A DNA stretch of 64,000 bases from Bacteroidota bacterium (GCA_947504725.1 CANNHN010000005.1:37704-101703); one strand, 5' to 3'. Counted from the stretch's first letter, positions 37,752 through 64,000 are shown. A program made the numbers and translations. The notes: generated by a model from the letters alone, not told the origin.

Positions 37752-37916
37752 CAGGTTATAAAGTATTTAGAGTAAAAAGAAAGAGAAGCGTTTTATTTAA
37801 TATAGATACTACCTCACATCTAATCACTCGTTTCCCAATCGCATGTCTATCCATACTACTCAATCTCGTAGTTGCTTTTCCCAAAATTTTATATCTTTAC
37901 TTCCAAATAATCGGTT

Positions 37917-40900
37917 TTGAATAAATTTTACTCTAAATATTTATATTCCTTATTCGTTATAACACTTTTTTTTGGTGTTGTAAATTCTGTACATTCCCAA
38001 GAATTTAAATTCACTCACATCACTTCAGAGCAAGGCCTTTCTATGGGTGTTGTTAATTGTGTTTTGCAAGATAGTAGAGGTTTTATGTGGTTTGGTACTC
38101 AAGATGGATTGAATAAATATGATGGTTATAACATCACTGTATATAAGAATAACCAAATTGATTCCAATTCTCTTTCCAATAATTTTATCAATACTTTATA
38201 CGAAACTAAAAACGGTGAACTTATTATTGGAACCAATGGTGGTGGATTTGATGTTTACAATTTAAGTTCGGGAAAGTTTACACATCACATCGGTTTACAA
38301 AGCAATAAAAATAGTCTCAGCAATAACAATGTAAAATCCATTTTAGAAGATAAAGAAGGGTTGTTGTGGATTGGTACAGATGATGGATTGAATTCGTATA
38401 ATCAAAAAACAAAAAGATTCACCCGTTATCTTAATGACAATAAAAATGCAAATTCTATTTCTAATAACAATGCCTGGTGTTTGTTGGAAGCAACTGATGG
38501 TAAGTTGTGGATTGGTACGTATGGCGGAGGATTAAATTCTTTTGATAAGCGAACAGGGAAGTTTGAACATTTTAATCAGTTTAACAATTCAGGTAGTTTA
38601 TTGTATGAAAACATTAATCTAATTAGAACGATTTATGAAGATAAAGAAGGAATGTTTTGGATTGGAACTTTCGGTGAAGGCGTTCAGATTTTTGATCCGC
38701 ATTCAGGAAAATTTATCAAAAATATTAGAAATTCAGAATCGGATCCCAATTCATTAAGCAACGATAGAGTCTTGAGCATTAATGAAGATATGAATGGAAT
38801 CTTGTGGATTGCAACATATGGTGATGGAATAAATTTATACAATAAAAAAACGGGTAGATTCAGAAGCATTTTACATGATGAAAAAATTCTTACAGGTTTA
38901 AGTAGTAATCAGATAAAATGTATTTACCATGATAAAGTAGGTTCGGTTTGGATTGGAACAGAAGGTGGCGGAGTAAATGCTCATTTTAGAGCATCTAGCA
39001 AGTTTAAGTTTTTTACGAATCATTCAGGATCAGCAGAAGGCTTAAAAAGTAATATCGTTTATGCATTACTAGAAGACAGGGATGGTCTTTTGTGGATTGG
39101 AACAGGTAGGGGGGGCTTGTCAACCCTCGACAGAGAGACGAATACCTATCAACATTATCCTCAATTATCCAAAGGTGCAAATGAATCAATTCTTTCTTTG
39201 TGCGAAGATTCAGATGGGATTATATGGGTTGGGACATGGGGGAATGGCTTGTACTCATATAATAAAAAAACAAAAGAAATTATTTCTTATCCCGAATTTA
39301 AAGAAGTAAATGCTGGGACTATCGTTTCTGTTTTTGAAGATGCAAATGGTAACATTTGGGTAGGAACATATGGAGCAGGGGTGTTTTTTTACAATAAAGC
39401 GAGTACCAATTTCACTAAGTATGATAGTAGTAATGGGCTAAGCATTAATAATATTTATAATATATATCAGGATAGTAAAAAAAATATTTGGATTGCTACT
39501 GATGGTGGAGGAGTTGTTAAATATAATTCTGAATCAAATGTTTTTAAAACGTATAATCGAGATGAAATGCTCAATAGTATTAGTTCAAATTCCGTTAATT
39601 GTTCTTATGAAGACAAAGAAGGAAATATGTGGTTTGGGACAACGAATGGGTTGAATAAGCTAGATGTGAAAACTGGAAAATTCGAAGCGTATTTTGAAAA
39701 AGATGGTTTGCCGAATGATTTTATTTATTCATTGCTTCCTGATAGCAAAGGTAATTTATGGATGAGCACTAACAAAGGTGTTTCAAAGTATAATCCTAAA
39801 ATAAAAAATGAAAACGGTGCTGCTTTTAGAAATTATGATGTGAATGATGGTTTGCAAGGATTAGAGTTTAATCAAGGGGCTTATCATCAATGTGAAGATG
39901 GGGAAATATTTTTAGGAGGAGTAAATGGATTCAATGTTTTTTACCCAGATAAAATCCAAGACAATCCCAATGTTCCTCAAATACATATTATTTCCTATAA
40001 ACGTTTTGGTAAAGAAGTGCTTTTGGATACTTTAATTTATGATAAACAATATTTAGAACTAACGTATAAACAGAATTTTTTCTCATTTGATTTTGTTGCA
40101 TTGGATTATCAAATGCCTGGAAAAAACAAATACTCCTACATGTTGGTAGGCGTTGATGAAGATTGGTCGCCACCAAGTACACAGCGTTACGCAAGTTACA
40201 CTGAATTGAGTGGAGGTGATTACATTTTGCGAGTACGTGGAGCAAATAATGATGGGACATGGAACAATGAAGGAGTCACACTTCACATTCGTATTAATCC
40301 CCCATTTTGGAAAACGAAATGGTTTTACACACTTTGTGTTGTTTTAGTCATTGGTGGATTTTGGGGTTTCTTGAAATACAGAACAAGTTCGATTAAGCGC
40401 GAAAATAAAATTCTTGAAGAAAAAGTTGAAGAACGAACGCAAGAATTAGCTCAAAAAAACAAGGATATTACCAGCAGTATTCAGTACGCTAAACGAATTC
40501 AATTGGCTATTTTGCCTCCTTTGGAACAGATTTTCAAACATTTCCCAGAATCGTTTGTGTTATATAAACCTAAGGATATTGTGAGTGGAGACTTTTATTG
40601 GTTTGGAGTGAAAGATGGTAAGAAGATAATTGCAGCGGTTGATTGCACTGGTCACGGTGTTCCAGGTGCATTTATGAGTATGATCGGGCATAACTTGTTG
40701 AATCAAATTATTAGCGAAAATGGCATTACTCAGCCCGATGAAATTTTGAATGCCTTGCACCGAGGGGTTCAAGCAGCCTTAAAACAAGGAACAAATGTGG
40801 TGGATACGAGTGATGGAATGGATGTAGCGATTTGTTGTATTGATACCGCAAACAATGAATTGAAGTATGCAGGTGCTTATCGACCTTTATTTATTGTAAA

Positions 40901-41219
40901 TGGGGTAAAATTCGACAAAGTAGAAGCAGATAAAAACCCAATAGGTGGTTCTCAATTGGATGCGGATCGTAAGTTTACCGCTCATAGCATTAAAATTAAC
41001 AAAGGTGACACATTCTATATGGCATCGGATGGTTATGCCGACCAATTTGGTGGTGAAAAAGGTAAAAAATTCATGGTTAAACGATTCAATGAATTGATGT
41101 TAGAAATGCAGTCACAGAGCATGGAAGAGCAATGTATAACGTTGGATGAAAAGTTTGAAAACTGGCGAGGCTCTTACCAGCAAATTGATGATATTTTGGT
41201 AATCGGAATAAGATTTTAA
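37917..41219 (+). CDS. Periplasmic beta-propeller (Reg_prop) + Y_Y_Y + TM + PP2C phosphatase
   Basis: About 14 'ED..G.LWIGT..GG' repeats, YTELSGGDYILRVRG, one TM, PP2C motifs as in 36348-37751. Confidence 0.93.
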   Translation: MNKFYSKYLYSLFVITLFFGVVNSVHSQEFKFTHITSEQGLSMGVVNCVLQDSRGFMWFGTQDGLNKYDGYNITVYKNNQIDSNSLSNNFINTLYETKNGELIIGTNGGGFDVYNLSSGKFTHHIGLQSNKNSLSNNNVKSILEDKEGLLWIGTDDGLNSYNQKTKRFTRYLNDNKNANSISNNNAWCLLEATDGKLWIGTYGGGLNSFDKRTGKFEHFNQFNNSGSLLYENINLIRTIYEDKEGMFWIGTFGEGVQIFDPHSGKFIKNIRNSESDPNSLSNDRVLSINEDMNGILWIATYGDGINLYNKKTGRFRSILHDEKILTGLSSNQIKCIYHDKVGSVWIGTEGGGVNAHFRASSKFKFFTNHSGSAEGLKSNIVYALLEDRDGLLWIGTGRGGLSTLDRETNTYQHYPQLSKGANESILSLCEDSDGIIWVGTWGNGLYSYNKKTKEIISYPEFKEVNAGTIVSVFEDANGNIWVGTYGAGVFFYNKASTNFTKYDSSNGLSINNIYNIYQDSKKNIWIATDGGGVVKYNSESNVFKTYNRDEMLNSISSNSVNCSYEDKEGNMWFGTTNGLNKLDVKTGKFEAYFEKDGLPNDFIYSLLPDSKGNLWMSTNKGVSKYNPKIKNENGAAFRNYDVNDGLQGLEFNQGAYHQCEDGEIFLGGVNGFNVFYPDKIQDNPNVPQIHIISYKRFGKEVLLDTLIYDKQYLELTYKQNFFSFDFVALDYQMPGKNKYSYMLVGVDEDWSPPSTQRYASYTELSGGDYILRVRGANNDGTWNNEGVTLHIRINPPFWKTKWFYTLCVVLVIGGFWGFLKYRTSSIKRENKILEEKVEERTQELAQKNKDITSSIQYAKRIQLAILPPLEQIFKHFPESFVLYKPKDIVSGDFYWFGVKDGKKIIAAVDCTGHGVPGAFMSMIGHNLLNQIISENGITQPDEILNALHRGVQAALKQGTNVVDTSDGMDVAICCIDTANNELKYAGAYRPLFIVNGVKFDKVEADKNPIGGSQLDADRKFTAHSIKINKGDTFYMASDGYADQFGGEKGKKFMVKRFNELMLEMQSQSMEEQCITLDEKFENWRGSYQQIDDILVIGIRF

Positions 41220-41318
41220 ACTATATCGCTCCATTTTCGACATATTTTTGAGAAATTGCAAAAAATACCTATATTTGATGTTAGGATAAAACATTGAGAA
41301 ACTAAAAAAACCAATAAC

Positions 41319-42143
41319 ATGAAACGTATTCTATATTCATCACTTTTATTTGTTTCTGCAGTTACTGCATTAACTCTTAGTTCTTGTAAAAAAGAAGATC
41401 CAGATACGGAAACGCAATCAGCTATTGATAATAGTGTTTGCGAAGGAGAATTTACTGGAAGATTGGGAATAATCAATAGTATAGCTATCAAAGAACAAGG
41501 AGTAAAATCAATGAGAGCAATAGGTCAACCGATTATTTCATTTGTTGCCGCTGATACTCTAGATGGTTTTCCAATCACAATGTATCTTGATTATGGAACA
41601 GGAACAACAGATCCTGTTGATGGAAAAACACGAAAAGGACAAGTAACGGCAAAATTTAGTAATTCTTGGGATGCTTTAGGAACAAATGTAACGGTTAAGT
41701 TAATCAACTATTACGTTAAAACGGCTACTGGTGCTAATTTCGTTCAATATGCATGCGATAGTATAATGATTGGTCACCCTACTGCAGCAACGTTCACTAA
41801 TGATATTATTGGTGGAAAATGTGTTGCTGCTACTTGGAACCTAGAATGGTCTTGTAATAGAACTTTAACGCAAACAGCTGGTTTGGGTGATACGCTTTTA
41901 ACGAACGATGTTTATCAGTTTACAGGTAATGCAGTAGGAAAGACTCGCGAGGGTAAAGGATATACTGTAAACGTGGTTTCTCCAGTTACTAAGAGCATGT
42001 CTTGTACTTGGATTCAATCTGGTAGAATTGATTTAACGCCAGAAGGAAAAGCTACTCGTACCGTAGATTACGGAACTGGTCTTTGTGATGATCAGGCAAC
42101 GCTTACTATCAATGGTAATTCTTTTGCTTTTACCATGAATTGA
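41319..42143 (+). CDS. Uncharacterised lipoprotein, probably surface exposed
   Basis: Lipobox LSSC followed by KKED (acidic export-signal-like); DYGTG..D motifs; own -7 box TATATTTG at 41270-41277. Confidence 0.8.
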   Translation: MKRILYSSLLFVSAVTALTLSSCKKEDPDTETQSAIDNSVCEGEFTGRLGIINSIAIKEQGVKSMRAIGQPIISFVAADTLDGFPITMYLDYGTGTTDPVDGKTRKGQVTAKFSNSWDALGTNVTVKLINYYVKTATGANFVQYACDSIMIGHPTAATFTNDIIGGKCVAATWNLEWSCNRTLTQTAGLGDTLLTNDVYQFTGNAVGKTREGKGYTVNVVSPVTKSMSCTWIQSGRIDLTPEGKATRTVDYGTGLCDDQATLTINGNSFAFTMN

Positions 42144-43421: not shown

Positions 43422-44195
43422 TTATACATTCCCCATCAAATACATTGCACTCATTGTTGGAGACGAGCTACCACCTTTCTTTTCCAATGTTACTGCAAAA
43501 GCCTGCGCCCCTACAATTGTTTTCATTTTTTGAAGAGAAGCTGAATCGCTCTTCATGTCAAATACTCCAGCATCAACAGCTTTGCCGTCAACTATAGCCC
43601 AAAGTTGATATTGTTTATCGTCTGACGGCATTGGTAAAGAATTTACATTAATGTATACGTCCTTTGTATTTTGATTCCAATATAAAGCTGCCAGTGAGGT
43701 AGGTGACATTTCCATTCCCTTTAGCATAATTTTTTTGTTTTCAGGGTGCATTAAAACAGCCATTTCTTGTGCCATTTCTCCATATGATTTTGATTGTGAT
43801 TCAAAATCGGTAGCATATTGTTCATTTTTTAAAACTATTGAAGCAATTTGTTCTTCATTGTCTTTTATATTGTTAAGTAATATAACATTGTAAATAGAGC
43901 TCCCTATTAATAATGCAATAGATGCGGCTAAGAGCCATGATCTATTTTTGTTCGGCTGGAGAGTTAAAACTGTGTTTTTAGTGAAATCTATTTCACTTTG
44001 TATTTTTTGTTTTAATGCCGAAGGAGGATTTTTAGAAGCATGACTCATTAGTGTTCCTTCAATAAGTTCAATCTCCGCTAACACTTCAGCGTGTTTTCTT
44101 GACATTGCTTCAACTTCCGCTCGTTCTTTTTCAGAAAGGAGCCCAAGTACGTAGCTTTCAATAATACCTGATGATATGTAATCTTGAATATTCAA
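43422..44195 (-). CDS. Anti-sigma factor (RskA/anti-sigma-K type)
   Basis: YISSGIIESYVLG.LS..ER.EVE, TM, P.DKQYQLWAI..GK.VDAG, FAVTLEK.GGS..PT. Confidence 0.92.
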   Translation of the reverse strand: MNIQDYISSGIIESYVLGLLSEKERAEVEAMSRKHAEVLAEIELIEGTLMSHASKNPPSALKQKIQSEIDFTKNTVLTLQPNKNRSWLLAASIALLIGSSIYNVILLNNIKDNEEQIASIVLKNEQYATDFESQSKSYGEMAQEMAVLMHPENKKIMLKGMEMSPTSLAALYWNQNTKDVYINVNSLPMPSDDKQYQLWAIVDGKAVDAGVFDMKSDSASLQKMKTIVGAQAFAVTLEKKGGSSSPTMSAMYLMGNV

Positions 44196-53761: not shown

Positions 53762-56326
53762 ATGAGTCGCACCACCTATTTTGTTGATGTTATATTGCCA
53801 CTTTCGGTTCCCAATTTGTACACCTATCGTGTGCCTTTTGAATGGAACGAGTCGATTGCAATTGGTAAAAGAGTGGTGGTGCAATTTGGCCGAGGGAAAT
53901 TATATTCTGCACTTATCCGAAGAATTCACGAAAATCCCCCAAAGCAATACGTTGCCAAATACATTGATTCTATTTTAGATGATACTCCAATCGTCAATCA
54001 AAAACAATTTGAATTGTGGGATTGGATGAGCAGTTATTATATGTGCACCATTGGTGAAGTGATGATTGCGGCTTTGCCGGGCGGATTGCGTTTATCGAGC
54101 GAAACAAAAATTTTACTGAACCAAAATTATAAAGAACAATCCGCTAGTATTGAATTAAGCGATAAAGAATATTTAATTGTTGATGCTCTCGAAATTCGAC
54201 AAGTTTTAACACTCACGGATATTTCTGGAATCATCGAACAAAAAATTGTTTATCCGATTATCAAATCACTCATCGAAAAAGGTGTTGTTGTTTTACAAGA
54301 AGAGCTGAAAGAAAAATTCAAGCCTAAGATTGAGAGCTACGTTCGGATAACAGACTTTGCCGACAATGAAGAAAATCTAAAAACCATTTTTGATGCATTG
54401 GAACGAAAAGCTCCAAAGCAATTGGATGTCGTGATGGCATACATCACATTGTCGAAGCGTTATTCCCAAGAACGTGTTGAAGTCAGGAAATCAGATATTC
54501 TGAAAATGGTGGATGGAGCTGAAGCTGCTTTGAAATCATTAGTGAAAAAAAATACGTTTGAAATGTATGAACGTGAAGTTGGACGATTGGCAAGTTTTGA
54601 AAATGAAAACAAAATTTCAAATCTGAATGAAGAACAACAAAAGGTCTTGGAGTCAATCAATCTTCAGTTTTCTGGAAAGGCAAATCTTGATGGAGAATCT
54701 AAAAAAATAGTAAGCAACGAAAACTCCCTCTCCTTAGGAGAGGGCAGGGGTGAGGTCGATGTAGTATTGTTACACGGAGTTACCTCCTCGGGCAAAACAG
54801 AAATTTACGTAAAACTAATTGAACAAGCCATTGCAGAAGGAAAGCAAGTTTTGTATTTGCTTCCTGAAATTGCATTGACAACACAAATTATAAATCGTTT
54901 AAGAAAATATTTTGGCGAAGCTGTGGGTGTTTATCATAGTAAGTTCAATGAGAACGAAAGAGTAGAAGTATGGAATAATGTACTTAATCTGAAGTCGGAT
55001 ATTTCAAATTTTAAATTGGTAATTGGAGCGCGCTCCGCATTATTTTTGCCTTTCAGCAATTTAGGATTAGTTATTGTTGACGAAGAACACGATACTTCCT
55101 TTAAACAATATGATCCCGCTCCTCGTTACAATGCGCGCGATGCAGCCATTTATTTGGCGCACATTCACAAAGCAAAAACGTTGTTAGGTTCTGCAACTCC
55201 AAGTTTGGAAAGTTATTTCAACGCTCAGGAAGGTAAATATGGTTTTGCTGAAATGACCAAACGTTTTGGTGGAATTCAAATGCCTGAAATATTAATTGCC
55301 GATGTGAAAGAAGCGACTCGAAAAAAAATGATGAAGTCGCATTTTTCGCCATTGCTTTTAGATACCGTTACTTTAGCATTAGAAAAAAAGGAACAAGTTA
55401 TATTGTTTCAAAATAGAAGAGGTTTTGCTCCTCAATTAGAATGCAATATGTGTGCTTGGGTGCCACAATGTGCGAATTGTGATGTGAGTTTAACGTATCA
55501 CAAATTAAGCAATCAGTTGCGTTGTCACTATTGTGGTTATTCGATAAAACCACCAACCAAATGTGCTGCTTGTGGTGATACCGATTTAAAGATGAAAGGT
55601 TTTGGTACCGAAAAAATTGAAGAAGAATTATCTATTTTTTATCCGAAAGCCAGAATTGCACGTATGGATTTGGATACAACTAGAAGTAAATTTGCGCATC
55701 AACACATCATCCAAGATTTTGAAGAAGGGAATATCGATATTTTGGTAGGAACACAAATGGTGACCAAAGGATTGGATTTTGATAATGTAAGCATGGTTGG
55801 CATTTTGAATGCCGACAGCATGTTGAACTTCCCTGATTTTAGATCATTTGAACGTAGCTATCAATTGATGGCCCAAGTATCGGGGAGAGCAGGACGAAAA
55901 AACAAACGCGGAAAGGTAATTATTCAATCGCAAAATCCTGAACACAGTATTATTCAAGAAGTAATTGCCAATGATTTTTTATCGATGTATACGAATCAAT
56001 TACTGGATAGAAAAAATTTCAATTACCCTCCTTACTTTAGATTGATAGAAATTACGGTGATTCATAAAGATGTAGATATGGTAAATGCGTCTGCTAAATT
56101 TTTGGCAGATGCACTAAAAAAACATTTTGCTAAACGTGTGCTCGGACCAGAGTTTCCATTGGTTTCTCGTATCCGTAATTTGTTTCATAAAAATATATTA
56201 TTAAAAGTAGAAAGAGATGCTTCGGTTGGACAAGTAAAAAAAATAGTAAGTGAATTGCTTGTGAAATTTAAATCGACCAGTGATTATAAGTCGGTGAGAG
56301 TAAATATTGATGTGGATCCAATGTAA
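53762..56326 (+). CDS. priA: Primosomal protein N' (replication restart helicase)
   Basis: HGVTSSGKTE, DEEHD.SFKQ, GSATPSLE, two CxxC zinc pairs, QVSGRAGR; -7 box TATATTTG at 53750-53757. Confidence 0.97.
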   Translation: MSRTTYFVDVILPLSVPNLYTYRVPFEWNESIAIGKRVVVQFGRGKLYSALIRRIHENPPKQYVAKYIDSILDDTPIVNQKQFELWDWMSSYYMCTIGEVMIAALPGGLRLSSETKILLNQNYKEQSASIELSDKEYLIVDALEIRQVLTLTDISGIIEQKIVYPIIKSLIEKGVVVLQEELKEKFKPKIESYVRITDFADNEENLKTIFDALERKAPKQLDVVMAYITLSKRYSQERVEVRKSDILKMVDGAEAALKSLVKKNTFEMYEREVGRLASFENENKISNLNEEQQKVLESINLQFSGKANLDGESKKIVSNENSLSLGEGRGEVDVVLLHGVTSSGKTEIYVKLIEQAIAEGKQVLYLLPEIALTTQIINRLRKYFGEAVGVYHSKFNENERVEVWNNVLNLKSDISNFKLVIGARSALFLPFSNLGLVIVDEEHDTSFKQYDPAPRYNARDAAIYLAHIHKAKTLLGSATPSLESYFNAQEGKYGFAEMTKRFGGIQMPEILIADVKEATRKKMMKSHFSPLLLDTVTLALEKKEQVILFQNRRGFAPQLECNMCAWVPQCANCDVSLTYHKLSNQLRCHYCGYSIKPPTKCAACGDTDLKMKGFGTEKIEEELSIFYPKARIARMDLDTTRSKFAHQHIIQDFEEGNIDILVGTQMVTKGLDFDNVSMVGILNADSMLNFPDFRSFERSYQLMAQVSGRAGRKNKRGKVIIQSQNPEHSIIQEVIANDFLSMYTNQLLDRKNFNYPPYFRLIEITVIHKDVDMVNASAKFLADALKKHFAKRVLGPEFPLVSRIRNLFHKNILLKVERDASVGQVKKIVSELLVKFKSTSDYKSVRVNIDVDPM
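54724..54757. repeat. REP-like palindrome inside the priA reading frame
   Basis: CTCCCTCTCCTTAGGAGAGGGCAGGGGTGAGGTC, read as SLSLGEGRGEV; inverted homolog of 34601-34635. Confidence 0.8.
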
Positions 56327-56338
56327 AATGTATTTGTT

Positions 56339-56920
56339 ATGAAATTTAGTTGTATTTATTTCTTTGGTCTTTTAGTATTGATAAGCTCTTGCGGACCAGA
56401 AAAAATAGGAGAGGTTAAAAATGGAGTTGCTATTGTTGATACAGTTGCCTCACAAGAGCCTGCTGTTTCTGAAACCTACAGATTGGAAACTTTCCAGAAC
56501 ATGGAGATGATAGAATATTGTTTGTTGCTTCCTTTAAGTGAATACACATTGGTTGACGAAAAAAGTGAAAAGGCGGCTCATTCGTTTATTCATAAAACGA
56601 AAAAAGACAATACAATTGCTATTCAAGGCTTGTTGAGAGCCAATTCGGAAGTTTCAATTGAAGAGTATTTTAAAAATTCATTGGAAGATGCTGAATTGGA
56701 AGGAAAAATTATTGAGAAAAAAGAATTGAAAAAAGACAAGAATTGTTTTTATGCAAAAGGCTATTGGAACAATTCAATTCATGAATCTCGTTTTATAGAA
56801 GTATGTTGGTTGCGGAGCGATGAGGTAGTGAAATATTATTCCTCTTTTGATATTGCAGATACTACATTGTGGAATAAACGATTGGAAGAAATTTTGAAAT
56901 CCGGCAGCGTTTGTAAATAA
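56339..56920 (+). CDS. Hypothetical lipoprotein
   Basis: Lipobox ISSC; no family recognised. Confidence 0.7.
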   Translation: MKFSCIYFFGLLVLISSCGPEKIGEVKNGVAIVDTVASQEPAVSETYRLETFQNMEMIEYCLLLPLSEYTLVDEKSEKAAHSFIHKTKKDNTIAIQGLLRANSEVSIEEYFKNSLEDAELEGKIIEKKELKKDKNCFYAKGYWNNSIHESRFIEVCWLRSDEVVKYYSSFDIADTTLWNKRLEEILKSGSVCK

Positions 56921-56947
56921 CGAAGCCCCGATTTCTCGGGGGCTTCG
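56921..56947. terminator. GC-rich hairpin between convergent genes
   Basis: CGAAGCCCCGA-TTTC-TCGGGGGCTTCG. Confidence 0.6.
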
Positions 56948-56968
56948 TCTCCAACCCTACCACCCCAA

Positions 56969-58564
56969 CTATTTTACTTTTATTATCATTGGACTCATTG
57001 CTACAACAATTCCATCTGGTCCCATTCCTTTTATTTCTTCAAAAAAGATTCGTTCATTCTTTTTTACTTTTTGTAAGCGTGTTATCATTGCAGATGTAAG
57101 CATGTTAGATGTTGAAAAATAATCTTCTGCAATTCCTCCGCTTATAAAACTCATTGTGAATGAAGTTACAACAGGTTTTGATTCGTATTCAAAAGAAGGA
57201 TAAAATGCGATTAATCCTTTTTGAACAGTAATCGTTCCTTTGTTCACACTTCCGCTTTCAGTCATTTCAGCAAATTTTGCACTTGGTTTTGGAATTCTTC
57301 TTACTCTGAATTCTTGAACACCCATATTTCTTTTTTCGCCATTCTCTAAATTTGCGATTACAGAAACATTTACAACTCCGTCAGTGATTGGTTTTATTAT
57401 ATACTTTCCATTTCCTTGGCTTATCATTATGGCATTTGATGCCGATACTGTGAGTTTTTCATTTGGAACACCAGGGACAGAAACCGAAATTGGATTTTCT
57501 AATCCTCGATATACTAGATTCATGTTTTCAGCTGCAACAGTTAATGATGGCTTTGCAACAATGTATTCCGATTTGAAAGGATAAATCATTTCTTTTCCTT
57601 TTGGAGAAATTACTTTCACCGTTCCAGAATAGGTCATGATTCCTTCTTTGTTGGTACTTGCTACATATTTTCCTAATCCTCGTTCAACTGGAATTGCATT
57701 TGGTGTTCCATTAAACGATTTGCTTGCTTCATTGTAATCTCCCACCATAACTTCAGGATTTCTAGTTTTATTGAATGCTGCAAGAAAAACTTGTGCTTTG
57801 TATTCTTCACCCAACATTACATAATTACTTTCCGGAATTACTTTTGCTGCAATCGTATCAAACTTCATCGTTTCTACATCCATCTCTTTTAATAAATAAT
57901 CAACAGTAGTTGCTTCTGCATTTTTTACATCGTTTTTTAGTTTTGATAAAATCGTAAGACTAGCTACTAATGGACGGTCATAAAAATTATACAACTCCCA
58001 ATTCTCATTTTCTTCACTGAATTTCGGGTCATCTGTATTGATGTCTAATTTTACTTTTGACTTATCTTTCGGTAAAATATAACTGCTTAATTGTGTTCTG
58101 TATGCATTCAATCTGTTTTTTAAATCGCGTGAAGCACCAGCAGAACCATCTTCCGAATTGCCAATTAAAATATTAGTTGGAATATTGTAGTCATCTTTGT
58201 TTTCGATGCTTGCCATTTGAATGGTGTCTGCAACACTTTGCTCCAATCCTTCTGTTTTTGCAATCAACTCTTTTTGAAGTTTATCAATAAAATCATTTAA
58301 TTCTTGAGAACGCTTTTTTACATCCTGTGCTTTTTTCCAGTTGGGTGTTACTTTTACTGGATCTACACTCTTCGCTAAATCGAACATCGAGTAAAGCGTT
58401 TCGTTATTGTCAGTAAAATTGATGTTTGTGTTTTCCAATCCTTTATTTACAATTACAAAAGCATCTAAAATGTCTTTGGAAACATTCAATGCTAAAAGAC
58501 AGGTAAGTACTAAGTACATCATACCAATCATTTTTTGTCGTGGGGTGTCTTTTGCTGAAGCCAT
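56969..58564 (-). CDS. gldM: GldM/PorM T9SS-gliding motor rotor protein (no gldK/L/N adjacent)
   Basis: TPRQKMIGMMYLVL..LLALNVSK.ILDAF N-terminus with R9 and Y17; F...PLVA.LT.LSKL.NDVKNAE; NLVYRGLENPISVSVPG; FRVRRIPKP. Confidence 0.92.
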   Translation of the reverse strand: MASAKDTPRQKMIGMMYLVLTCLLALNVSKDILDAFVIVNKGLENTNINFTDNNETLYSMFDLAKSVDPVKVTPNWKKAQDVKKRSQELNDFIDKLQKELIAKTEGLEQSVADTIQMASIENKDDYNIPTNILIGNSEDGSAGASRDLKNRLNAYRTQLSSYILPKDKSKVKLDINTDDPKFSEENENWELYNFYDRPLVASLTILSKLKNDVKNAEATTVDYLLKEMDVETMKFDTIAAKVIPESNYVMLGEEYKAQVFLAAFNKTRNPEVMVGDYNEASKSFNGTPNAIPVERGLGKYVASTNKEGIMTYSGTVKVISPKGKEMIYPFKSEYIVAKPSLTVAAENMNLVYRGLENPISVSVPGVPNEKLTVSASNAIMISQGNGKYIIKPITDGVVNVSVIANLENGEKRNMGVQEFRVRRIPKPSAKFAEMTESGSVNKGTITVQKGLIAFYPSFEYESKPVVTSFTMSFISGGIAEDYFSTSNMLTSAMITRLQKVKKNERIFFEEIKGMGPDGIVVAMSPMIIKVK

Positions 58565-58640
58565 GATTTCTGAGTTTTTTTAAGTTTATATTAAACTTGA
58601 ATTTTGCCTCATAATGCTAGCTAAGAAAAAAAGATACAAT

Positions 58641-58669
58641 AAAAAACGCCACAAGATGTGCATGTGGCG
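58641..58669 (-). terminator. Intrinsic terminator 77 nt upstream of gldM
   Basis: Minus strand CGCCACA-TGCACATCT-TGTGGCG-TTTTTT. Confidence 0.75.
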
Positions 58670-58726
58670 CTATGAGGGAGTAGCCTCATGAAAAAACAAT
58701 AAAATTGGACACTAATTTAAGTGACA

Positions 58727-58797
58727 CAAAGGAAACTATTTTTCTTTCGAGATAATATCCGTAGAGAAGGGTAAATTTTTCTACGTACTAGCACGGA
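58727..58797 (-). promoter_or_regulatory. Operator-like element (copy 2) with a -7-like box TTCCTTTG at 58727-58734
   Basis: ATCCGTAGAGAAGGGTAAATTTTTCTACGTACTAGCACGGA (58757-58797), 33/41 identical to 62978-63018. Confidence 0.7.
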
Positions 58798-58843
58798 GGA
58801 GTAAAATAGGAAGTAAGAAGATAGATTTTTTTCTTTTTATGTT

Positions 58844-61144
58844 TTAAATACGAATTCCAATAACACAGATGTCGTCCACTTGTTCTAAATGGGATTTCCA
58901 TTTATTTATAGCTGACTTAAGCAAGTCTCCTTGTTCGACCAAGGGTAATTTGGCTATGCTTAACAATAATTCTTTTAATTGTTTATACATGAATTTTTTA
59001 CCATTCGGACCTCCGAATTGATCAGCCATTCCATCTGTGAAAGTGTAAACTACATCCTCTTTTTGTAACTGAATGGTATGTTGAGTAAAAGAAACAGAGT
59101 CTTTGTCATGTTTCCCAACCGGCATTTTGTCTGGTAAAAAAGCAAGGATTTCATTTCCTCTTGCAATCCAAACGGGATTGTTGGCAGAAGAGTATGTTAG
59201 TTGCTTCTTTGAAAAATCAAAACTGATCAGACTACAATCCATACCGTCTTTTCCACCTTCTTCACTTCCATCATTCGATAAATGATGAATGATTCTTGCA
59301 CGTGTATAGTTTAAGATTTCATTTGGTGCAGTTAATTGTTGTCCATTCACTGCTTCGTTCAAGCATGAAATATTTAGCATGCTCATGATGGCGCCTGGTA
59401 CTCCATGTCCCGTGCTATCTGCCGTTACCAATGCAAATTGGCCGTTTTTTAATTCACTAGCCCAATAGAAATCTCCACTAACAATATCTTTTGGTTGGAA
59501 AAAAATAAAATGATCTGGTAAATTAGTATTTAAGAATTGTTTACTAGCTAGAAGCGAATGTTGAATCCGTTTCGCGTAATTAATACTGTCGGTGATTTCG
59601 CGGTTCTTTTCCTCAACCAATATTTTTTGTTTTTCAATGTATATGTTTTTTTCTTCCAACAAGCTGTTTGCTTTCTGTTTTTGACGATAGCTGCGATAAG
59701 CAAAAACAGCAAAACATAAAATTAAAAATCCTACAAAACCAACAAAGTATAATATAATGGTTTGTTTTCTTCGTTCTGCAATGTTTAATGCATCCTTTTT
59801 TTCCTGCTCTGCCTTTACAATAGATTCTTTTTTGTCGAATTCATATTGCATTTGTGATTCAACAAGTTTTTTTGAGGTCTCCTGATTTACTAGGCTATCT
59901 CTGTATAGAATAGCCATTTTATGATGTTCGAAAGCTTGTTTCCAAAATTTTCCAGGACCGCTGTTTGGTGTTTGAAATCCTGCTGCCTGTGCACTGTCTA
60001 ATTCAGCTAAACCGCTGTATGTATCTTTAATATAATCTTTGGCTCCAATTTCTTTTGATAGTGTTAATCCTTTGTCAAGATATTCTAACGCTTCTTTGAA
60101 TTTCTTTTGCTTTGTGAAAATTACTCCAATGTTAGTGTAGCAATTAGCGATGCCATTTTTATCTTCAAGTTCCTCTGCAAGTTTTAAAGAAGCGAGTTGA
60201 TTTTTTAAAGCATCTTCATAATTTCCTTTGTTTTTATAAATAATTCCAATGTTATTATACGACATAGCGATTCCTCTTTTGTCGCCTATCTCTTCCATTA
60301 TCTTTAATGAAGCCAGTTGATTTGCAAGTGCTTCGGTGTAGTTGCCTTGCAAGTAATGTATGATTCCAATGTTGTTGTAGGAAGACCCGATTCCATTTTT
60401 ATCACCGATTTCTAATCTGATTTTCAAAGAAGCCAATTGATTTTTTAATGCTTCTTTATAGATATTTTGTGAATAATAGATGTTGCCAATATTGTTGTAA
60501 CAATTAGCAATTCCTTGTTTGTCGCCTAATTCTTCTCTGATTTTTAAGGATGAAAATTGATTTTTTAAAGCATCTGAATAATTTCCTTGTAAGTGGTATA
60601 CGTTGCCAATATTCATGAAACAAATTGCCATTCCATTTTTGTCATTTATTTCTGTTCTGGTTTTTAGAGAAGACAGGTGATTCTTTAATGCTTCGGAGTA
60701 GTTGCCTTGAGCATAATAGATATTTCCTATGTTGTTATAAGATCCTGCTATTCCTTCTTTATCGCTAATTTCTTCCCTAATTTTTAATGAGATTGAATAA
60801 TTTTTTAAAGCATTTTTGTAATCTCCTTGATTGTCGAAAATAATTCCAATATTATTATACGCTTTGCCTTCGCCTTTTTTGAACCCTATTTTTTTTGAAA
60901 CAGCCAATGCGTCATTGGCATATTGATTTGCGCTTGAGTAATCTCCTGTATTCCTTATTTCTCTGCAAAGATTATTGAGGGTGTTGACTTTTGTAGTGTC
61001 TTCTTTGCTAACTTTTATAAAGGATTTAAGTGAGTCGATAGTTTGATTTTGTGCAGAAAAATTTGAATTAAAAAAAATGAATAACATAATCAAAAGAAAG
61101 TTTTTCAAATCTATCTTTCTGTATATATAACTATGGTAATTCAT
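58844..61144 (-). CDS. Periplasmic TPR sensor + TM + PP2C phosphatase
   Basis: Signal ending SAQ; 40-aa repeats DK.GIA.SYNNIG.IY..QGNY..AL...L.SLKI.EE.G; TM; SINYAKRIQ, DIVSGDFYW, DSTGHGVPGA, DDICVIG. Confidence 0.93.
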   Translation of the reverse strand: MNYHSYIYRKIDLKNFLLIMLFIFFNSNFSAQNQTIDSLKSFIKVSKEDTTKVNTLNNLCREIRNTGDYSSANQYANDALAVSKKIGFKKGEGKAYNNIGIIFDNQGDYKNALKNYSISLKIREEISDKEGIAGSYNNIGNIYYAQGNYSEALKNHLSSLKTRTEINDKNGMAICFMNIGNVYHLQGNYSDALKNQFSSLKIREELGDKQGIANCYNNIGNIYYSQNIYKEALKNQLASLKIRLEIGDKNGIGSSYNNIGIIHYLQGNYTEALANQLASLKIMEEIGDKRGIAMSYNNIGIIYKNKGNYEDALKNQLASLKLAEELEDKNGIANCYTNIGVIFTKQKKFKEALEYLDKGLTLSKEIGAKDYIKDTYSGLAELDSAQAAGFQTPNSGPGKFWKQAFEHHKMAILYRDSLVNQETSKKLVESQMQYEFDKKESIVKAEQEKKDALNIAERRKQTIILYFVGFVGFLILCFAVFAYRSYRQKQKANSLLEEKNIYIEKQKILVEEKNREITDSINYAKRIQHSLLASKQFLNTNLPDHFIFFQPKDIVSGDFYWASELKNGQFALVTADSTGHGVPGAIMSMLNISCLNEAVNGQQLTAPNEILNYTRARIIHHLSNDGSEEGGKDGMDCSLISFDFSKKQLTYSSANNPVWIARGNEILAFLPDKMPVGKHDKDSVSFTQHTIQLQKEDVVYTFTDGMADQFGGPNGKKFMYKQLKELLLSIAKLPLVEQGDLLKSAINKWKSHLEQVDDICVIGIRI

Positions 61145-61223
61145 TTTGATTGTATGATTTTTGAAAAAATTAATTAATTCACATTTTTTAGTTTGTTAAA
61201 TATAGAAATAAGTAAGATGTCTC

Positions 61224-61261
61224 AAAAAAAATGGCTGCCAAAATCAGAAGGCAGCCATTTT
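61224..61261 (-). terminator. Terminator after the lipoprotein gene
   Basis: AAATGGCTGCC...GGCAGCCATTT stem with A8 on the plus strand. Confidence 0.8.
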
Positions 61262-61280
61262 AATTTAACTAAACAAAAAC

Positions 61281-62105
61281 TTATTCGCTCATTAAAGCGC
61301 CATCAATACTATACTCAACACCTGTAACTACATCTTCTACTTTTGCATCACTAGCCATTTCAAAAGAAGTTTCTGTAACATTTACATGTCCATCAGATGC
61401 ATAATAGTATTTTGCATGATCCATGCTTGCCAAGGTTGGTGTAGCAAGATCACTAAAGTCAAGTAATTGACCAATTGCAATAGTTCCTGATGCACCATCG
61501 TCAAAAAAGCCAAATTCAAAACTACCTTCTCCAGCTGTACCAACTACAAGAAAAATAGCTAAGTTGTTAATCATAAAATCTGTTCCATCTATTTCTCCAT
61601 CAATTGCTACAATTGCTCTTAATTCAGCACTTCCAGCAATACTGCCCCAGTCAGGATCCGCAGATGTTACTTTGATACCTAATACATAATTGTAGTCAAA
61701 ACTTTTTCCGTTGTAAGATAATTGACCTAAGCCACCACCTGTTGATTCAGAAAAAGTATAGGAAGTTGTAGGTGTTGTTGGATCACTCCATGAATAAACA
61801 GTTCTAGCAGGATCTGAATAGGTTGTTCTGCCGAATGTAACGTTTGAGTATATGTTTGTTCCGGATCCAGCACTTGTAAAACTTTGTTGACTTGAACCAC
61901 CTGCCTGAGCTGTAACAAAACCGCGAAGAATCCTTTGGATGTTCTGACGCATTTGTTTGTTTGCAGGCGAGGTAGTATTGTTTGATTTAGCGATGCTCAG
62001 TTGTTTTTCCTTTTGACAAGAAGCTACACTAAGCAAAATCATCAACAAAGCTGGATAAACAAACATTTTCCCCAACATGTTTGATAAAAACGAAAATTGT
62101 TTCAT
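61281..62105 (-). CDS. Hypothetical Ser/Thr/Gly-rich lipoprotein
   Basis: Lipobox VASC-QKEK; beta-rich composition; start could be further downstream. Confidence 0.75.
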   Translation of the reverse strand: MKQFSFLSNMLGKMFVYPALLMILLSVASCQKEKQLSIAKSNNTTSPANKQMRQNIQRILRGFVTAQAGGSSQQSFTSAGSGTNIYSNVTFGRTTYSDPARTVYSWSDPTTPTTSYTFSESTGGGLGQLSYNGKSFDYNYVLGIKVTSADPDWGSIAGSAELRAIVAIDGEIDGTDFMINNLAIFLVVGTAGEGSFEFGFFDDGASGTIAIGQLLDFSDLATPTLASMDHAKYYYASDGHVNVTETSFEMASDAKVEDVVTGVEYSIDGALMSE

Positions 62106-62133
62106 GTTATTTATATTTTAAGAGGTTAAATAA

Positions 62134-62153
62134 GAGGGAGTATTAACTCCCTC
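62134..62153 (-). terminator. Intergenic hairpin between the OMP and lipoprotein genes
   Basis: GAGGGAGT-ATTA-ACTCCCTC 8-bp stem, weak U-tail. Confidence 0.5.
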
Positions 62154-62174
62154 ATTAAAGATAAACAATATTCT

Positions 62175-62921
62175 CTAGAAAATATATCCCAAACGAATTG
62201 CGCTATTAAAATTTGGTCCAAAATTAACTTCTCTTCCTTGGCTGCTTGGATCAGGATTTCCTGGATCTACTGCTGGAGGTGTAACAGCTGGGTAAGTAGA
62301 AGGATAAGTTGTAGTCATTTTGTGGTCACTGTATTTTACCATTTGGAAACCAAAACCAAATTCAGTTCCTAAATACAAATGCTTTGTAATGTAACAATCA
62401 AAACCTGCTACAACGTTAGCTCCAACTCTGAAAAAACCACCTTTGTTTTTGTTTTTGTCAGTTTGAATTACAAATTGGTCTGTTGTTCCGCCTGCATCAA
62501 GTCCTGTTGGAGTAACTTCTTTTGAAGATTGTCCGGCTAAATCTAATTCAGCTCCAATATATGGGCTCAAGCGATTTGTTCCAGCAAAGTGTTTTTCATA
62601 ACCTGGTCTGATATTCCAACCAAATTGTCTTTTTTTGTAATCCTCAGATACTGTAGTTCCCGCTGTTAAGTTTGAATTAAAAACAGAGTCTGCTTTGGTA
62701 GATGAATAGCTTAATCCAATTCCTAAACGGAATGCAGTGCTTTCGCTTAAAAATCTTCTGTAGCGAATGTATGTTAATTGAATTGGTTTACCATTTAATG
62801 GAACAAAATTCAATTCTAAATTATTTGCTTTTGCAGCAGGTTTAAAGTCTGATGCATCTTGTGCCATTGTTAAAGTGCACACAGATAAAAAAAGTGCTGA
62901 TGTAGTAATAGTTTTTTTCAT
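62175..62921 (-). CDS. Outer-membrane beta-barrel protein
   Basis: ATG 62921 MKKTITTSALFLSVCTLTMAQ signal; amphipathic strands; terminal RLGYIF. Confidence 0.82.
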   Translation of the reverse strand: MKKTITTSALFLSVCTLTMAQDASDFKPAAKANNLELNFVPLNGKPIQLTYIRYRRFLSESTAFRLGIGLSYSSTKADSVFNSNLTAGTTVSEDYKKRQFGWNIRPGYEKHFAGTNRLSPYIGAELDLAGQSSKEVTPTGLDAGGTTDQFVIQTDKNKNKGGFFRVGANVVAGFDCYITKHLYLGTEFGFGFQMVKYSDHKMTTTYPSTYPAVTPPAVDPGNPDPSSQGREVNFGPNFNSAIRLGYIF

Positions 62922-62947
62922 GATAGGATTTATTTGGTTTATATGCA

Positions 62948-63019
62948 CAAAAGTATATATGCTTTTGTGTGCACACAATCCGTATGGGTGGGTAAATTTG
63001 TATCCGTACTAGTACGGAT
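62948..63019 (-). promoter_or_regulatory. Operator-like element (copy 1) with promoter TTG-N20-TACTTTTG
   Basis: Perfect 18-bp palindrome ATCCGTACTAGTACGGAT (63002-63019) within the 41-bp element from 62978; -7 box 62948-62955. Confidence 0.75.
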
Positions 63020-63050
63020 GTGGGCTGTTTGCTCTCTAAATAATGGGGAT

Positions 63051-63698
63051 TTAGTCGATCAGCTTGTTTTCAATCGCAAACTTTATTAGCCCTACAGCGC
63101 TTTTGGTATTCGCTTTTCTGAAGATGTTTTTTCGATGTGTTTCTACAGTACGCTCGCTAATAAATAGGGCTTCACCAATTTGAGCATTACTATATTCTTT
63201 TGCAATAAGTTGAATGATCTCTTTTTCTCGCTCCGTAAAATAAATTTTGTTCTCGCCTTCTTTTTTTTGTCCCCGCTCGCTAAGTGTTTTCATCATCTCA
63301 GCAGAAATCTCATCACTAAAAAACATGCCTCCTGCAGCAATTTTTGTTAATGCATTTATTAGTTCTGTTTTTCCTGTGTTTTTTAAAATATAACCAGATG
63401 CACCAGCATCTAGCATTTCGGAGATGGTACTTCTTTCACCAAACATGGAAAGCACAAGCACTTTTATTTCAGGATGATTTTTTTTAAGCAAACGAGTAAA
63501 TTCAATCCCATTCATTTCAGGCATATTGATATCGCTTAAAACAATATCAGGAGTGTTTTTTTTTATTAATTCAATAGCGATGCTTGCTTTTGTAGCTTCT
63601 CCCACAATAGTAAACGCATTTTCATTATGTAATAAAGCTTTTATACCGTCAACCAGCATTTGATGGTCATCCAAAATAAAAAGTTTGATTTTGCTCAT
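63051..63698 (-). CDS. NarL/FixJ-family (LuxR HTH) response regulator
   Basis: ILDDH, LSDINMPEMNG, LSM, GASGYILK; TEREKEII.LIA..YSN.QI...LFISERTVETHRKNI; ATG 63698. Confidence 0.95.
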   Translation of the reverse strand: MSKIKLFILDDHQMLVDGIKALLHNENAFTIVGEATKASIAIELIKKNTPDIVLSDINMPEMNGIEFTRLLKKNHPEIKVLVLSMFGERSTISEMLDAGASGYILKNTGKTELINALTKIAAGGMFFSDEISAEMMKTLSERGQKKEGENKIYFTEREKEIIQLIAKEYSNAQIGEALFISERTVETHRKNIFRKANTKSAVGLIKFAIENKLID

Positions 63699-63714
63699 AT
63701 TGTAAAAATACGAA

Positions 63715-64000
63715 TTATTTGATAGGAACTTCAATGCTTACTGTGGTTCCTTTTTCAGGGCGTGAATCAAAATTAACATTGCCGTTGAGGTATTCGATTC
63801 TAGATTGAATGTTTTTTAATCCGATACCTTTTTCCATCACTTTGTTTAGGTCAAATCCAATTCCATTGTCCTCAATCATCAAGGTTAACTCATCGTTATG
63901 ACGTATGATTTGGATATTAACAACAGTTGCCTGAGAATGCTTGATAATGTTGTTTACTAATTCTTGAAGCACTCTAAACAAAACTGTTTCCATAGTGCTT
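63715..64000 (-). CDS. C-terminal HATPase domain of a NarX/UhpB-type histidine kinase (partial)
   Basis: LFRVLQELVNNIIKHS, IEDNGIGF, GIGLKNI, G..GT.V; frame stays open past the window end. Confidence 0.92.
   Translation of the reverse strand, partial: STMETVLFRVLQELVNNIIKHSQATVVNIQIIRHNDELTLMIEDNGIGFDLNKVMEKGIGLKNIQSRIEYLNGNVNFDSRPEKGTTVSIEVPIK

Follow-up and report, generated by a model that had tools for sequence, protein, structure and literature searches.

The window analysed here is a stretch of 64,000 nucleotides (64 kb) from a Bacteroidota bacterium that is known solely from metagenomes and metagenome-assembled genomes (MAGs). Towards its end, the minus strand encodes a two-component system, an outer-membrane protein (OMP) operon, a phosphatase and a GldM/PorM-family protein:

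63715..64000, minus strand: 3' part of the partner sensor kinase gene, which continues past the window end
63051..63698, minus strand: 215-aa response regulator (RR) with REC and GerE (LuxR-type HTH) domains (Pfam PF00072 and PF00196), the candidate cognate regulator
62175..62921, minus strand: 248-aa outer-membrane beta-barrel protein (PF16961 OmpA_like / DUF3575-like), the first predicted target gene
61281..62105, minus strand: 274-aa predicted lipoprotein, partner of the OMP; signal ending in LSVASC, no family match
58844..61144, minus strand: 766-aa TPR and SpoIIE (PP2C) phosphatase, located between the two element copies described below
56969..58564, minus strand: 531-aa GldM/PorM-family protein (TIGR03517, 321 bits against a cutoff of 180)

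The sensor kinase is 646 aa long in L001 and is composed of TPR, HisKA_3 and HATPase_c domains. The closest solved relatives of the response regulator are VraR, NarL, DevR and DesR; of these, the first three recognize inverted repeats in dimeric form. An inverted-repeat match (41302-41342 / 62082-62122) pointed to a paralogue of the 274-aa gene, but BLASTP returned signal-peptide similarity only, and the paralogue was rejected.

The preliminary description of this DNA reported a 41-bp element present twice. Our analysis confirmed that 62978-63018 and 58757-58797 align without gaps at 33 of 41 positions, with the sequences quoted there, and that copy 1 contains a perfect 18-bp palindrome, ATCCGTACTAGTACGGAT, at 63002-63019. 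The two copies and their promoters are laid out as follows:

62978..63019, minus strand: element copy 1, type A, (A)TCCGTACTAGTACGGATACAAATTTACCCACCCATACGGAT
62991-62997: ATTTACC box of copy 1 (GGTAAAT on the plus strand)
62978-62984: promoter-proximal TACGGAT heptamer of copy 1
62948..62978, minus strand: predicted core sigma-A-type promoter of the OMP operon, with the -33 TTG at 62978..62976 and the -7 box TACTTTTG at 62955..62948
58757..58797, minus strand: element copy 2, type B, TCCGTGCTAGTACGTAGAAAAATTTACCCTTCTCTACGGAT; its palindrome is imperfect
58727..58734, minus strand: -7 box TTCCTTTG of the predicted copy-2 promoter, whose -33 position reads TAT, not TTG

A third copy, which the preliminary description had not found by eye, is absent from the window according to both a palindrome scan and a position weight matrix (PWM) scan. 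Given the base composition, 0.009 direct pairs of such quality are expected by chance in 64 kb, or 0.017 when inverted pairs are included. A degenerate pattern allowing up to three mismatches recovered just the two window sites and nothing in 100 shuffles, a test that is partly circular because the pattern was derived from the same two copies. The other two SpoIIE genes of the window (36348-41219), scanned for a second regulon cluster, carry no element. We regard the conservation of the sequence in other genomes as the decisive evidence that the element did not arise by chance.

We found 15 element copies across about 10 related uncultured Bacteroidota lineages, with the consensus TCCGTACyAGTACGGATAcAAATtTACC-N6-tACGGAT in gene orientation. 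Conservation forms a sharp island, in which the element is near-invariant and the left flanks are unrelated; the best-conserved part across 13 aligned copies is the palindrome core CCGTAC-NN-GTACGG. Copy 1 has orthologous copies at L017, L007, L008, L013, L025, L021, L022 and L023, and copy 2 differs from its orthologue at L015 at 1 of 41 positions. The palindrome CCGTACNNGTACGG, with up to two mismatches, does not occur outside element copies, either in the 64-kb window or in any of the fetched loci. The scans beyond the window used exact patterns, and the loci examined spanned at most 20 kb. The strict pattern gave two sites over 185,579 species genomes; since it missed diverged copies (L024, L021-L023 and copy 2 of L007), this genome-wide copy number is a lower bound. 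A scan of JGI metagenomes returned eight loci, five with true copies (four distinct sequences) and three with chance matches, and a scan of viral contigs returned no match. Our literature search found no earlier description of the motif or of a corresponding regulon.

These counts bear on the alternative named in the preliminary description, a REP-type repeat dispersed without regard to promoters. The element does resemble REP/BIME or MITE-type repeats in being a short palindromic intergenic sequence after stop codons. However, it lies on the gene strand, 22 nt from a -7 box, and is kept at orthologous promoters across lineages, and the genome, metagenome and viral scans revealed only a handful of copies, one or two per locus, all of them on the gene strand and promoter-linked. 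A dispersed repeat of this type was therefore rejected.

In both window copies the minus-strand -7 box begins 30 bp from the element start, as first described, which leaves 22 nt between element and box. The distance from the element to TnnnTTTG is exactly 22 nt in 14 of the 15 copies, which upholds the original view of an operator-like sequence at a fixed distance from Bacteroidota -7 boxes; it is 21 nt in L015. TTTG is shared without exception by the 13 aligned copies, and in 11 of them a TTG follows the element, 20 nt upstream of the TTTG box. The Bacteroidota sigma-A promoter consensus consists of a -33 TTG and a -7 TAnnTTTG, with the -7 box at -12 to -5 (PMC9723704). Taking as our definition a TAnnTTTG-like box, a TTG about 19-21 nt upstream and a gene close downstream, we found sigma-A promoters, as predicted from the consensus, at the element copies. 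The 22-nt phasing, together with a -7 box at -12 to -5, therefore places the element at about -75 to -35, where it overlaps the -33 TTG (in copy 1, the TTG shares the last base of the element). Transcription of the OMP operon is predicted to start near 62943, giving a 5' UTR of 22 nt, and that from the copy-2 promoter near 58722. A promoter on the plus strand, which would produce antisense RNA, was considered because TAAATTTG in copy 1 fits the -7 consensus, and was rejected because this match is not conserved (TAAATTAT in L007, TAAATCGG in L008).

Two explanations that place the function of the element in the RNA or in the sigma factor can be weighed against this phasing. Both window copies lie 33-47 nt past a stop codon, a hairpin of 7-8 bp could form from the palindrome and a plus-strand terminator-like call covers 62997-63024, which would fit a terminator of the upstream RR or SpoIIE gene, or an RNA switch with alternative ATCCGTA / TACGGAT hairpins. 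However, the hairpin has no U-tract on the gene strand, the second copies of L007 and L022 lie downstream of a separate canonical terminator, and the conserved sequence includes non-pairing positions and keeps its phase with the -7 box rather than with the upstream stop codon, the distance to which varies. Rfam gives no match to the element; the sole match in the search of 56000-64000 was a sub-threshold snoRNA inside the gldM-like gene. We consider a terminator or RNA switch extremely unlikely and have set it aside. Recognition of the element as an extended promoter by an alternative (ECF-type) sigma factor would likewise account for conserved blocks at fixed spacing upstream of envelope and T9SS-related genes, and Bacteroidota do use ECF sigma factors for some T9SS genes (SigP in Porphyromonas gingivalis). 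This possibility is exceedingly improbable, however, as the copies retain, at the usual spacing, a -7 box (TnnnTTTG) of canonical sigma-A type and a -33 TTG, and a perfect dyad with a heptamer occurring three times indicates binding by a dimeric HTH protein rather than sigma -35/-10 recognition. The element is very likely a promoter-linked operator for a transcription factor.

The preliminary description had further connected copy 2 to the leader of the gldM-like gene, and hence to the same regulon as the OMP-lipoprotein pair. The region between copy 2 and that gene contains the following:

58712..58726, minus strand: CHLN* remnant, the last codons of a deleted 72-aa Cys-rich lipoprotein gene
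58639..58671, minus strand: intrinsic terminator, with a GC-rich stem of 9 bp, GCGCCACA...UGUGGCGU, and then U6
58565..58638, minus strand: the gldM-like gene's own leader/promoter region, TGTATCTTTTT...TGCATTATGAGGnCAA, outside the element

This connection was not supported, since a strong terminator separates the copy-2 promoter from the gldM-like ATG and the gldM-like leader is conserved separately. The terminator folds with z = -3.9, better than any of 200 shuffles, and equivalent terminators are present in L015, L008, L019, L025 and L013. Six lineages preserve the leader, whether or not an element lies upstream of it. A 72-aa Cys-rich lipoprotein gene follows the copy-2 promoter in the close relative L015 and is cleanly deleted from the window: alignment of the two reveals a gap of about 222 nt that spans the lipoprotein ORF, with the deletion junction at about 58724-58726, directly after the copy-2 -7 box. 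Homologous 72/73-aa genes occur in L015 and in L025/L013. From this comparison, we conclude that copy 2 is now an orphaned promoter, which ancestrally drove the 72-aa lipoprotein gene, and its annotation as a gldM leader is corrected accordingly. Its transcript is predicted to be at most about 85 nt long and to end at the terminator upstream of the gldM-like gene; the latter, located downstream, is probably not controlled through copy 2.

The position of the element relative to the regulator gene suggests which protein may bind it. In all 10 sampled lineages with the RR neighbourhood, a copy directly follows the RR gene, irrespective of what lies beyond it; this is the OMP gene in most lineages, but L024 has an FGE-sulfatase gene there and L019 a 17-aa remnant. 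Other copies precede genes for an FGE-sulfatase, a 72-aa lipoprotein or a small HTH protein. The HTH protein with such a copy in L022 stands alone and is 56% identical to the RR DNA-binding domain, which speaks for the RR as the binder. The OMP-lipoprotein pair is kept in L007, L008, L009, L010, L021, L022, L023 and L025. The synteny amidase-HK-RR-[element]-OMP-~270aa, checked at the DNA level in L021, L022 and L023, extends to 65% OMP identity, and P0051 has the same order of genes (gene order only) at 57% OMP identity. At similar divergence, the OMP orthologues of L009 and L010, which have no RR nearby as judged at the sampled locus neighbourhoods, keep the core promoter and 5' UTR and lack the element. 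Features of a NarL/LuxR-type operator are thus found together: a REC and GerE regulator with a HisKA_3 kinase nearby, an arrangement conserved in 10 lineages, dyad-symmetric half-sites and a fixed position relative to the predicted core promoter.

The operator could instead serve another factor, either an unlinked dimeric HTH protein or the small GerE protein of L022, with the adjacency of the RR gene being a neighbourhood effect. L022 encodes this additional GerE HTH protein; in L008, three genes (FGE-sulfatase, PKD cargo and Y_Y_Y-SpoIIE) and a distance of about 7 kb separate the OMP copy from the RR gene upstream of it; and the ATTTACC box is unlike the palindrome half-site. However, the additional HTH protein is present in one lineage only, and the alternative is opposed by the constant position after the RR gene, kept even when the downstream gene differs, and by the lack of the element at L009 and L010, where no RR gene lies nearby. 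We therefore consider this alternative unlikely. Autoregulation was also considered and rejected: no palindrome was found upstream of the amidase-HK-RR operon in L001, L007, L021, L024 or L025, and autoregulation therefore gives no support to the assignment.

The copies are also direct repeats around variable gene sets, which raises the question of whether recombination, or the joining of cassettes, is the main function of the element, with its promoter association being secondary. The order of cassettes differs between L007 (RR-element-OMP pair-element-FGE) and L024/L008 (RR-element-FGE-PKD-SpoIIE-element-OMP pair), L007 carries the type A and type B variants the other way round from the window, and L019 lacks the OMP pair, as recombination between copies would give. 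Nevertheless, homologous recombination between any 41-bp repeats yields the same rearrangements and needs no dedicated function, no recombinase or integrase gene was found in any annotated locus, the palindrome lacks the central spacer typical of tyrosine-recombinase core sites, viral contigs are devoid of matches, and the exact phasing to the -7 box and overlap with the -33 TTG are promoter features. A primary role in recombination is thus very unlikely. The linkage to the RR gene could in part be a by-product of rearrangements at element copies. Additionally, the operator-plus-promoter module might constitute a portable regulatory cassette, with the copy-2 promoter exapted for a regulator-controlled small RNA of about 85 nt that ends at the terminator upstream of the gldM-like gene, a proposal that we regard as distinctly unlikely. 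If it were true, T9SS-related genes would be reshuffled, gained and lost by recombination between copies, all under one two-component system, the cargo being the OMP pair, the GldK-like FGE-sulfatase, T9SS cargo, small lipoproteins and a decoy HTH protein.

Our preferred explanation, a composite operator on a sigma-A promoter that is bound by the adjacent NarL/LuxR-type regulator, is probable in its full form, though by no means assured. Three parts make up the element. The first is a palindrome of 16-18 bp, (A)TCCGTAC-yr-GTACGGA(T), with its centre near -67.5; a wTTTACC/AATACC box, also conserved, lies near -51; and a TACGGAT heptamer, the third in the element, occupies -41 to -35 directly next to the -33 TTG. 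The likeliest binder would be the phosphorylated response regulator (63051-63698), acting with the TPR-HisKA_3 kinase. One dimer, we infer, sits on the palindrome; another may bind the weaker promoter-proximal half-sites and contact RNA polymerase, leading to activation, as at ComA sites and NarL heptamers. Because the ATTTACC box does not clearly repeat the half-site, a second protein could be involved. Both the regulator and the sign of regulation are assigned here by reasoning from sequence, and a site overlapping -35 can also repress. The regulon in the window would consist of one live target, the OMP-lipoprotein operon, and the orphaned promoter at copy 2. What is gained is a precise cis-element, with consensus, phasing and predicted transcription start sites, and a small candidate regulon for a TPR-kinase / NarL-type two-component system, so far uncharacterised, that many uncultured Bacteroidota possess. 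Membership of this regulon changes even from one close lineage to the next.

The element is of an ordinary kind: composite response-regulator operators are already well known, and no general principle is changed. ComA promoters of Bacillus subtilis contain an inverted repeat, RE1-RE2, and downstream elements RE3/RE4 (Griffith & Grossman 2008; PMC4797271). ComA likewise belongs to the NarL/LuxR family, and in both cases a conserved palindrome is followed by degenerate promoter-proximal elements and the site abuts the -35 region, a layout that suggests two dimers and activation. In contrast to ComA, the half-site here is TACGGAT, unrelated to TTGCGG, the palindrome lacks the 4-nt spacer, successive heptamers begin at intervals of 14 and 10 bp, and the predicted promoter belongs to the Bacteroidota -33/-7 type.

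NarL of E. coli recognizes TACYYMT heptamers in a 7-2-7 arrangement. The regulator and NarL are homologous (E = 1e-30 against PDB entry 1a04), the heptamers of the element also begin with TAC, the central TACCCnn box resembles TACYYMT, and inverted and single heptamers are mixed upstream of promoters. However, the pair described here is tail-to-tail (ATCCGTA-CTAG-TACGGAT), whereas that of NarL is head-to-head, the kinase is a TPR sensor and not NarX/NarQ, and the targets are envelope rather than respiration genes. VraR/LiaR, the closest solved homologues of the regulator (E = 5e-35), control envelope genes and bind a primary palindrome together with secondary sites once phosphorylation has driven their oligomerisation; they come from Firmicutes and differ in motif, in kinase architecture and in the LiaF-like partner, which is absent here.

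Within the Bacteroidota, PorX/PorY-SigP controls type IX secretion genes in P. gingivalis, where PorX, which is no LuxR-type DNA binder, works via an ECF sigma factor. The system described here is also a Bacteroidota two-component system associated with GldK/GldM-family and T9SS cargo genes, its neighbours being genes for outer-membrane proteins, GldK/GldM-family paralogues, T9SS cargo proteins and PP2C phosphatases; unlike the PorX/PorY targets, the gldM-like gene is apparently outside the control of the element.

The 41-bp element is a genuine, conserved sequence of an ordinary kind, a putative operator of a two-component response regulator, newly defined here for a clade of uncultured Bacteroidota. 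Both repeats of the preliminary description were recovered with the sequences quoted there, and they align without gaps at 33 of 41 positions; the 18-bp palindrome of copy 1 (ATCCGTACTAGTACGGAT, 63002-63019) is perfect. The 30 bp reported between the repeats and the -7 boxes corresponds to 22 nt separating each element from a minus-strand 8-mer downstream. Degenerate pattern, PWM and palindrome scans of the window gave no further match, in agreement with the reported lack of a third copy, and base composition predicts about 0.01-0.02 such pairs by chance in 64 kb. The host is an uncultured Bacteroidota organism, and identical proteins are known on metagenome contigs only. The neighbourhood of the two copies is as follows.

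Starting beyond 63715, minus strand: TPR-HisKA_3 sensor kinase
63051-63698, minus strand: REC+GerE response regulator
62978-63018, minus strand: element copy 1, between the response regulator and outer-membrane protein (OMP) genes
62955..62948, minus strand: -7 box of the copy-1 promoter, 8-mer TACTTTTG
62175-62921, minus strand: 248-aa beta-barrel protein, OmpA_like/DUF3575-type (the OMP)
61281-62105, minus strand: 274-aa lipoprotein
58844-61144, minus strand: 766-aa TPR-SpoIIE phosphatase
58757-58797, minus strand: element copy 2, between the SpoIIE and gldM-like genes
58734..58727, minus strand: -7 box of the copy-2 promoter, 8-mer TTCCTTTG
56969-58564, minus strand: 531-aa GldM/PorM-family protein
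Next after the gldM-like gene, plus strand: priA

Orthologous loci gathered via the OMP and regulator proteins, together with two exact-pattern scans, yielded 15 element copies from about 10 lineages: the window (two) and the related loci L017, L015, L007 (two), L008, L024, L013/L020, L025, L019, L021, L022 (two) and L023. An alignment that included flanking DNA showed left-hand sequences that are unrelated between contexts, and almost no variation within the 41 bp or in the -7 box TTTG. The copies share, in gene orientation, the consensus TCCGTACyAGTACGGATAcAAATtTACC-N6-tACGGAT, then TGT, about 19 nt and tnnnTTTG. Of the 15 copies, 14 have a spacing of exactly 22 nt between element and -7 box, and the copy of L015, a close relative, has 21 nt. 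The flavobacterial sigma-A -7 box lies at -12 to -5 (PMC9723704). Placed from the consensus box on this basis, the element would span about -75 to -35, with the palindrome centred near -67.5, an ATTTACC box at about -54 to -48 and the last TACGGAT heptamer at -41 to -35, its final T being the first base of the -33 TTG; transcription is predicted to start at about 62943 (copy 1) and 58722 (copy 2). The layout thus placed combines a strong palindrome with weaker promoter-proximal heptamers. NarL uses heptamer sites, and the heptamer layout of the element is similar. It also resembles the arrangement of an inverted repeat and a direct repeat recognized by ComA (PMC4797271).

A dispersed repeat was rejected, since pattern scans of genomes, metagenomes and viral contigs gave few matches. 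A strict 20-base pattern matched only twice in 185,579 species genomes, both at known copies, and no element was found in the viral contigs. An 18-base pattern matched eight JGI metagenome loci, five of which are true copies representing four distinct sequences (those of L013 and L020 are identical); the other three, with neither a left half-site nor a -7 box, are chance matches. Moreover, the palindrome core, allowing up to two mismatches, is confined to element copies across the whole window and every fetched locus. Terminator, riboswitch, ECF-promoter and plus-strand-promoter readings of the element were also rejected.

Several observations bear on the protein that binds the element. Where the DNA was checked, the order amidase-kinase-regulator-element-OMP-~270-aa protein persists to OMP identities as low as 65%, and one further locus, judged by its genes, has the identical gene order at 57%. 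A copy trails the regulator gene even where the next gene is a different one. In L024, regulator and element are followed by an FGE-sulfatase gene (GldK/GldJ-type domain), a PKD T9SS cargo gene and a Y_Y_Y-SpoIIE gene, and a second copy lies farther downstream, ahead of the OMP pair; in L019, the copy after the regulator heads merely a 17-aa remnant and a terminator. Conversely, the OMP orthologues of L009 and L010, which are similarly diverged (71-75% identity), have no regulator gene in their vicinity; they retain the core promoter and 5' UTR, with an upstream block that differs from the element and may be an operator replacement. The common core promoter and 5' UTR there (L009 7790-8000, L010 7800-8000) read ..TTTG..ATAAACCAAC, and the shared block standing where the element would be is TTTAGTAAGAnTT..AAAAAAAGCnGT. 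The closest solved relatives of the regulator are VraR, NarL, DevR and DesR, dimeric binders of dyad sites. L022 (3273-3585) has a second copy ahead of the gene for a stand-alone GerE HTH protein of 72 aa; this protein shares 56% identity with the DNA-binding domain of the adjoining regulator and might act as a feedback competitor or as a co-activator. It is possible that another transcription factor binds the element. Taken together, synteny, linkage to the regulator, the L009/L010 loci, the solved relatives and the L022 HTH protein single out the adjacent regulator as the best candidate; we infer its binding and the direction of its effect, and likewise the TSS positions.

The preliminary description had joined the OMP-lipoprotein pair and the gldM-like gene in one regulon. 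The conserved element phased to promoters stands, but the gldM-like gene as a target does not. The copy-2 promoter is separated from the gldM-like ATG by a stable stem-loop ending in a U6 tail (58639-58671, minus strand); a 98-nt region that includes it has a folding energy of -20.1 kcal/mol (z = -3.9). L015 is near-identical around copy 2, and there the corresponding element and promoter lead into a gene for a 72-aa Cys-rich lipoprotein (164-403, MKKSIF...CHLE*) that ends right before the shared terminator. A 73-aa homologue, itself without an element, is found in L025/L013, which indicates that this gene is real. In the pairwise alignment with L015, about 222 nt are cleanly missing from the window, from right behind the -7 box up to the last four codons, still present as CHLN* (58726..58712, minus strand); the copy-2 operator-promoter now runs about 85 nt to the terminator. 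Between terminator and ATG of the lone GldM/PorM-family gene lies a non-coding block that is strongly conserved, TGTATCTTTTT-N7/8-TGCATTATGAGGnCAA (58565-58638, minus strand). Six lineages (L015, L008, L019, L022, L025 and L013) keep terminator and block (TGTATCTTTTT...TGCATTATGAGGnCAA) ahead of the gldM-like gene, irrespective of the sequence farther upstream, which indicates a separate promoter or leader for this gene. The block looks unlike a sigma-A promoter and could be an RNA leader or the promoter of an alternative sigma factor. Therefore, given the terminator, the L015 gene, the deletion and the independent leader, copy 2 is an orphaned operator-promoter in this genome, and the window holds one live target operon and one promoter that has lost its cargo gene.

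The loci also differ in cassette order. L007 (7231, 9047) reads regulator-element-OMP pair-element-FGE-sulfatase-PKD-SpoIIE, whereas L024 (8659) and L008 (7903) read regulator-element-FGE-sulfatase-PKD-SpoIIE-element-OMP pair; type A (ACGGATAC) and type B (ACGTAGAA...CCCTTCT) copies occupy opposite positions in the window and L007. These differences suggest that copies have recombined with, or converted, one another. The element is unlikely to be a dedicated recombination site, as no recombinase was found, the palindrome has no spacer and the element is phased to a promoter; from the cassette orders and swapped variants, the copies probably served as substrates for homologous rearrangement. 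In L019 (1230-1420, minus strand), regulator gene, element, promoter, 17-aa ORF and terminator are followed by the gldM-like leader, and the OMP-lipoprotein pair is missing, as a deletion between two copies would produce.

Between the OMP and lipoprotein genes of the window, an 8-bp GC-rich hairpin (GAGGGAGT-TAAT-ACTCCCTC, 62134-62153, minus strand) without a clear U-tract may be a partial terminator or an intra-operon processing site. Two more SpoIIE/PP2C phosphatase genes lie at 36348-41219 (467 aa, and 1100 aa with Reg_prop/Y_Y_Y sensor domains) and an RskA-type anti-sigma factor gene at 43422-44195; the element was found at none of the three. Sensor phosphatases are abundant in this genome, and their sensor architectures match those of its kinases. 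Finally, the 'Chitinophaga pinensis' label of the closest-relative MAG (L012, CAMCUO010000023.1) looks mis-assigned, because the G+C content of the window is about 33% and sister MAGs are labelled just 'Bacteroidia bacterium'.
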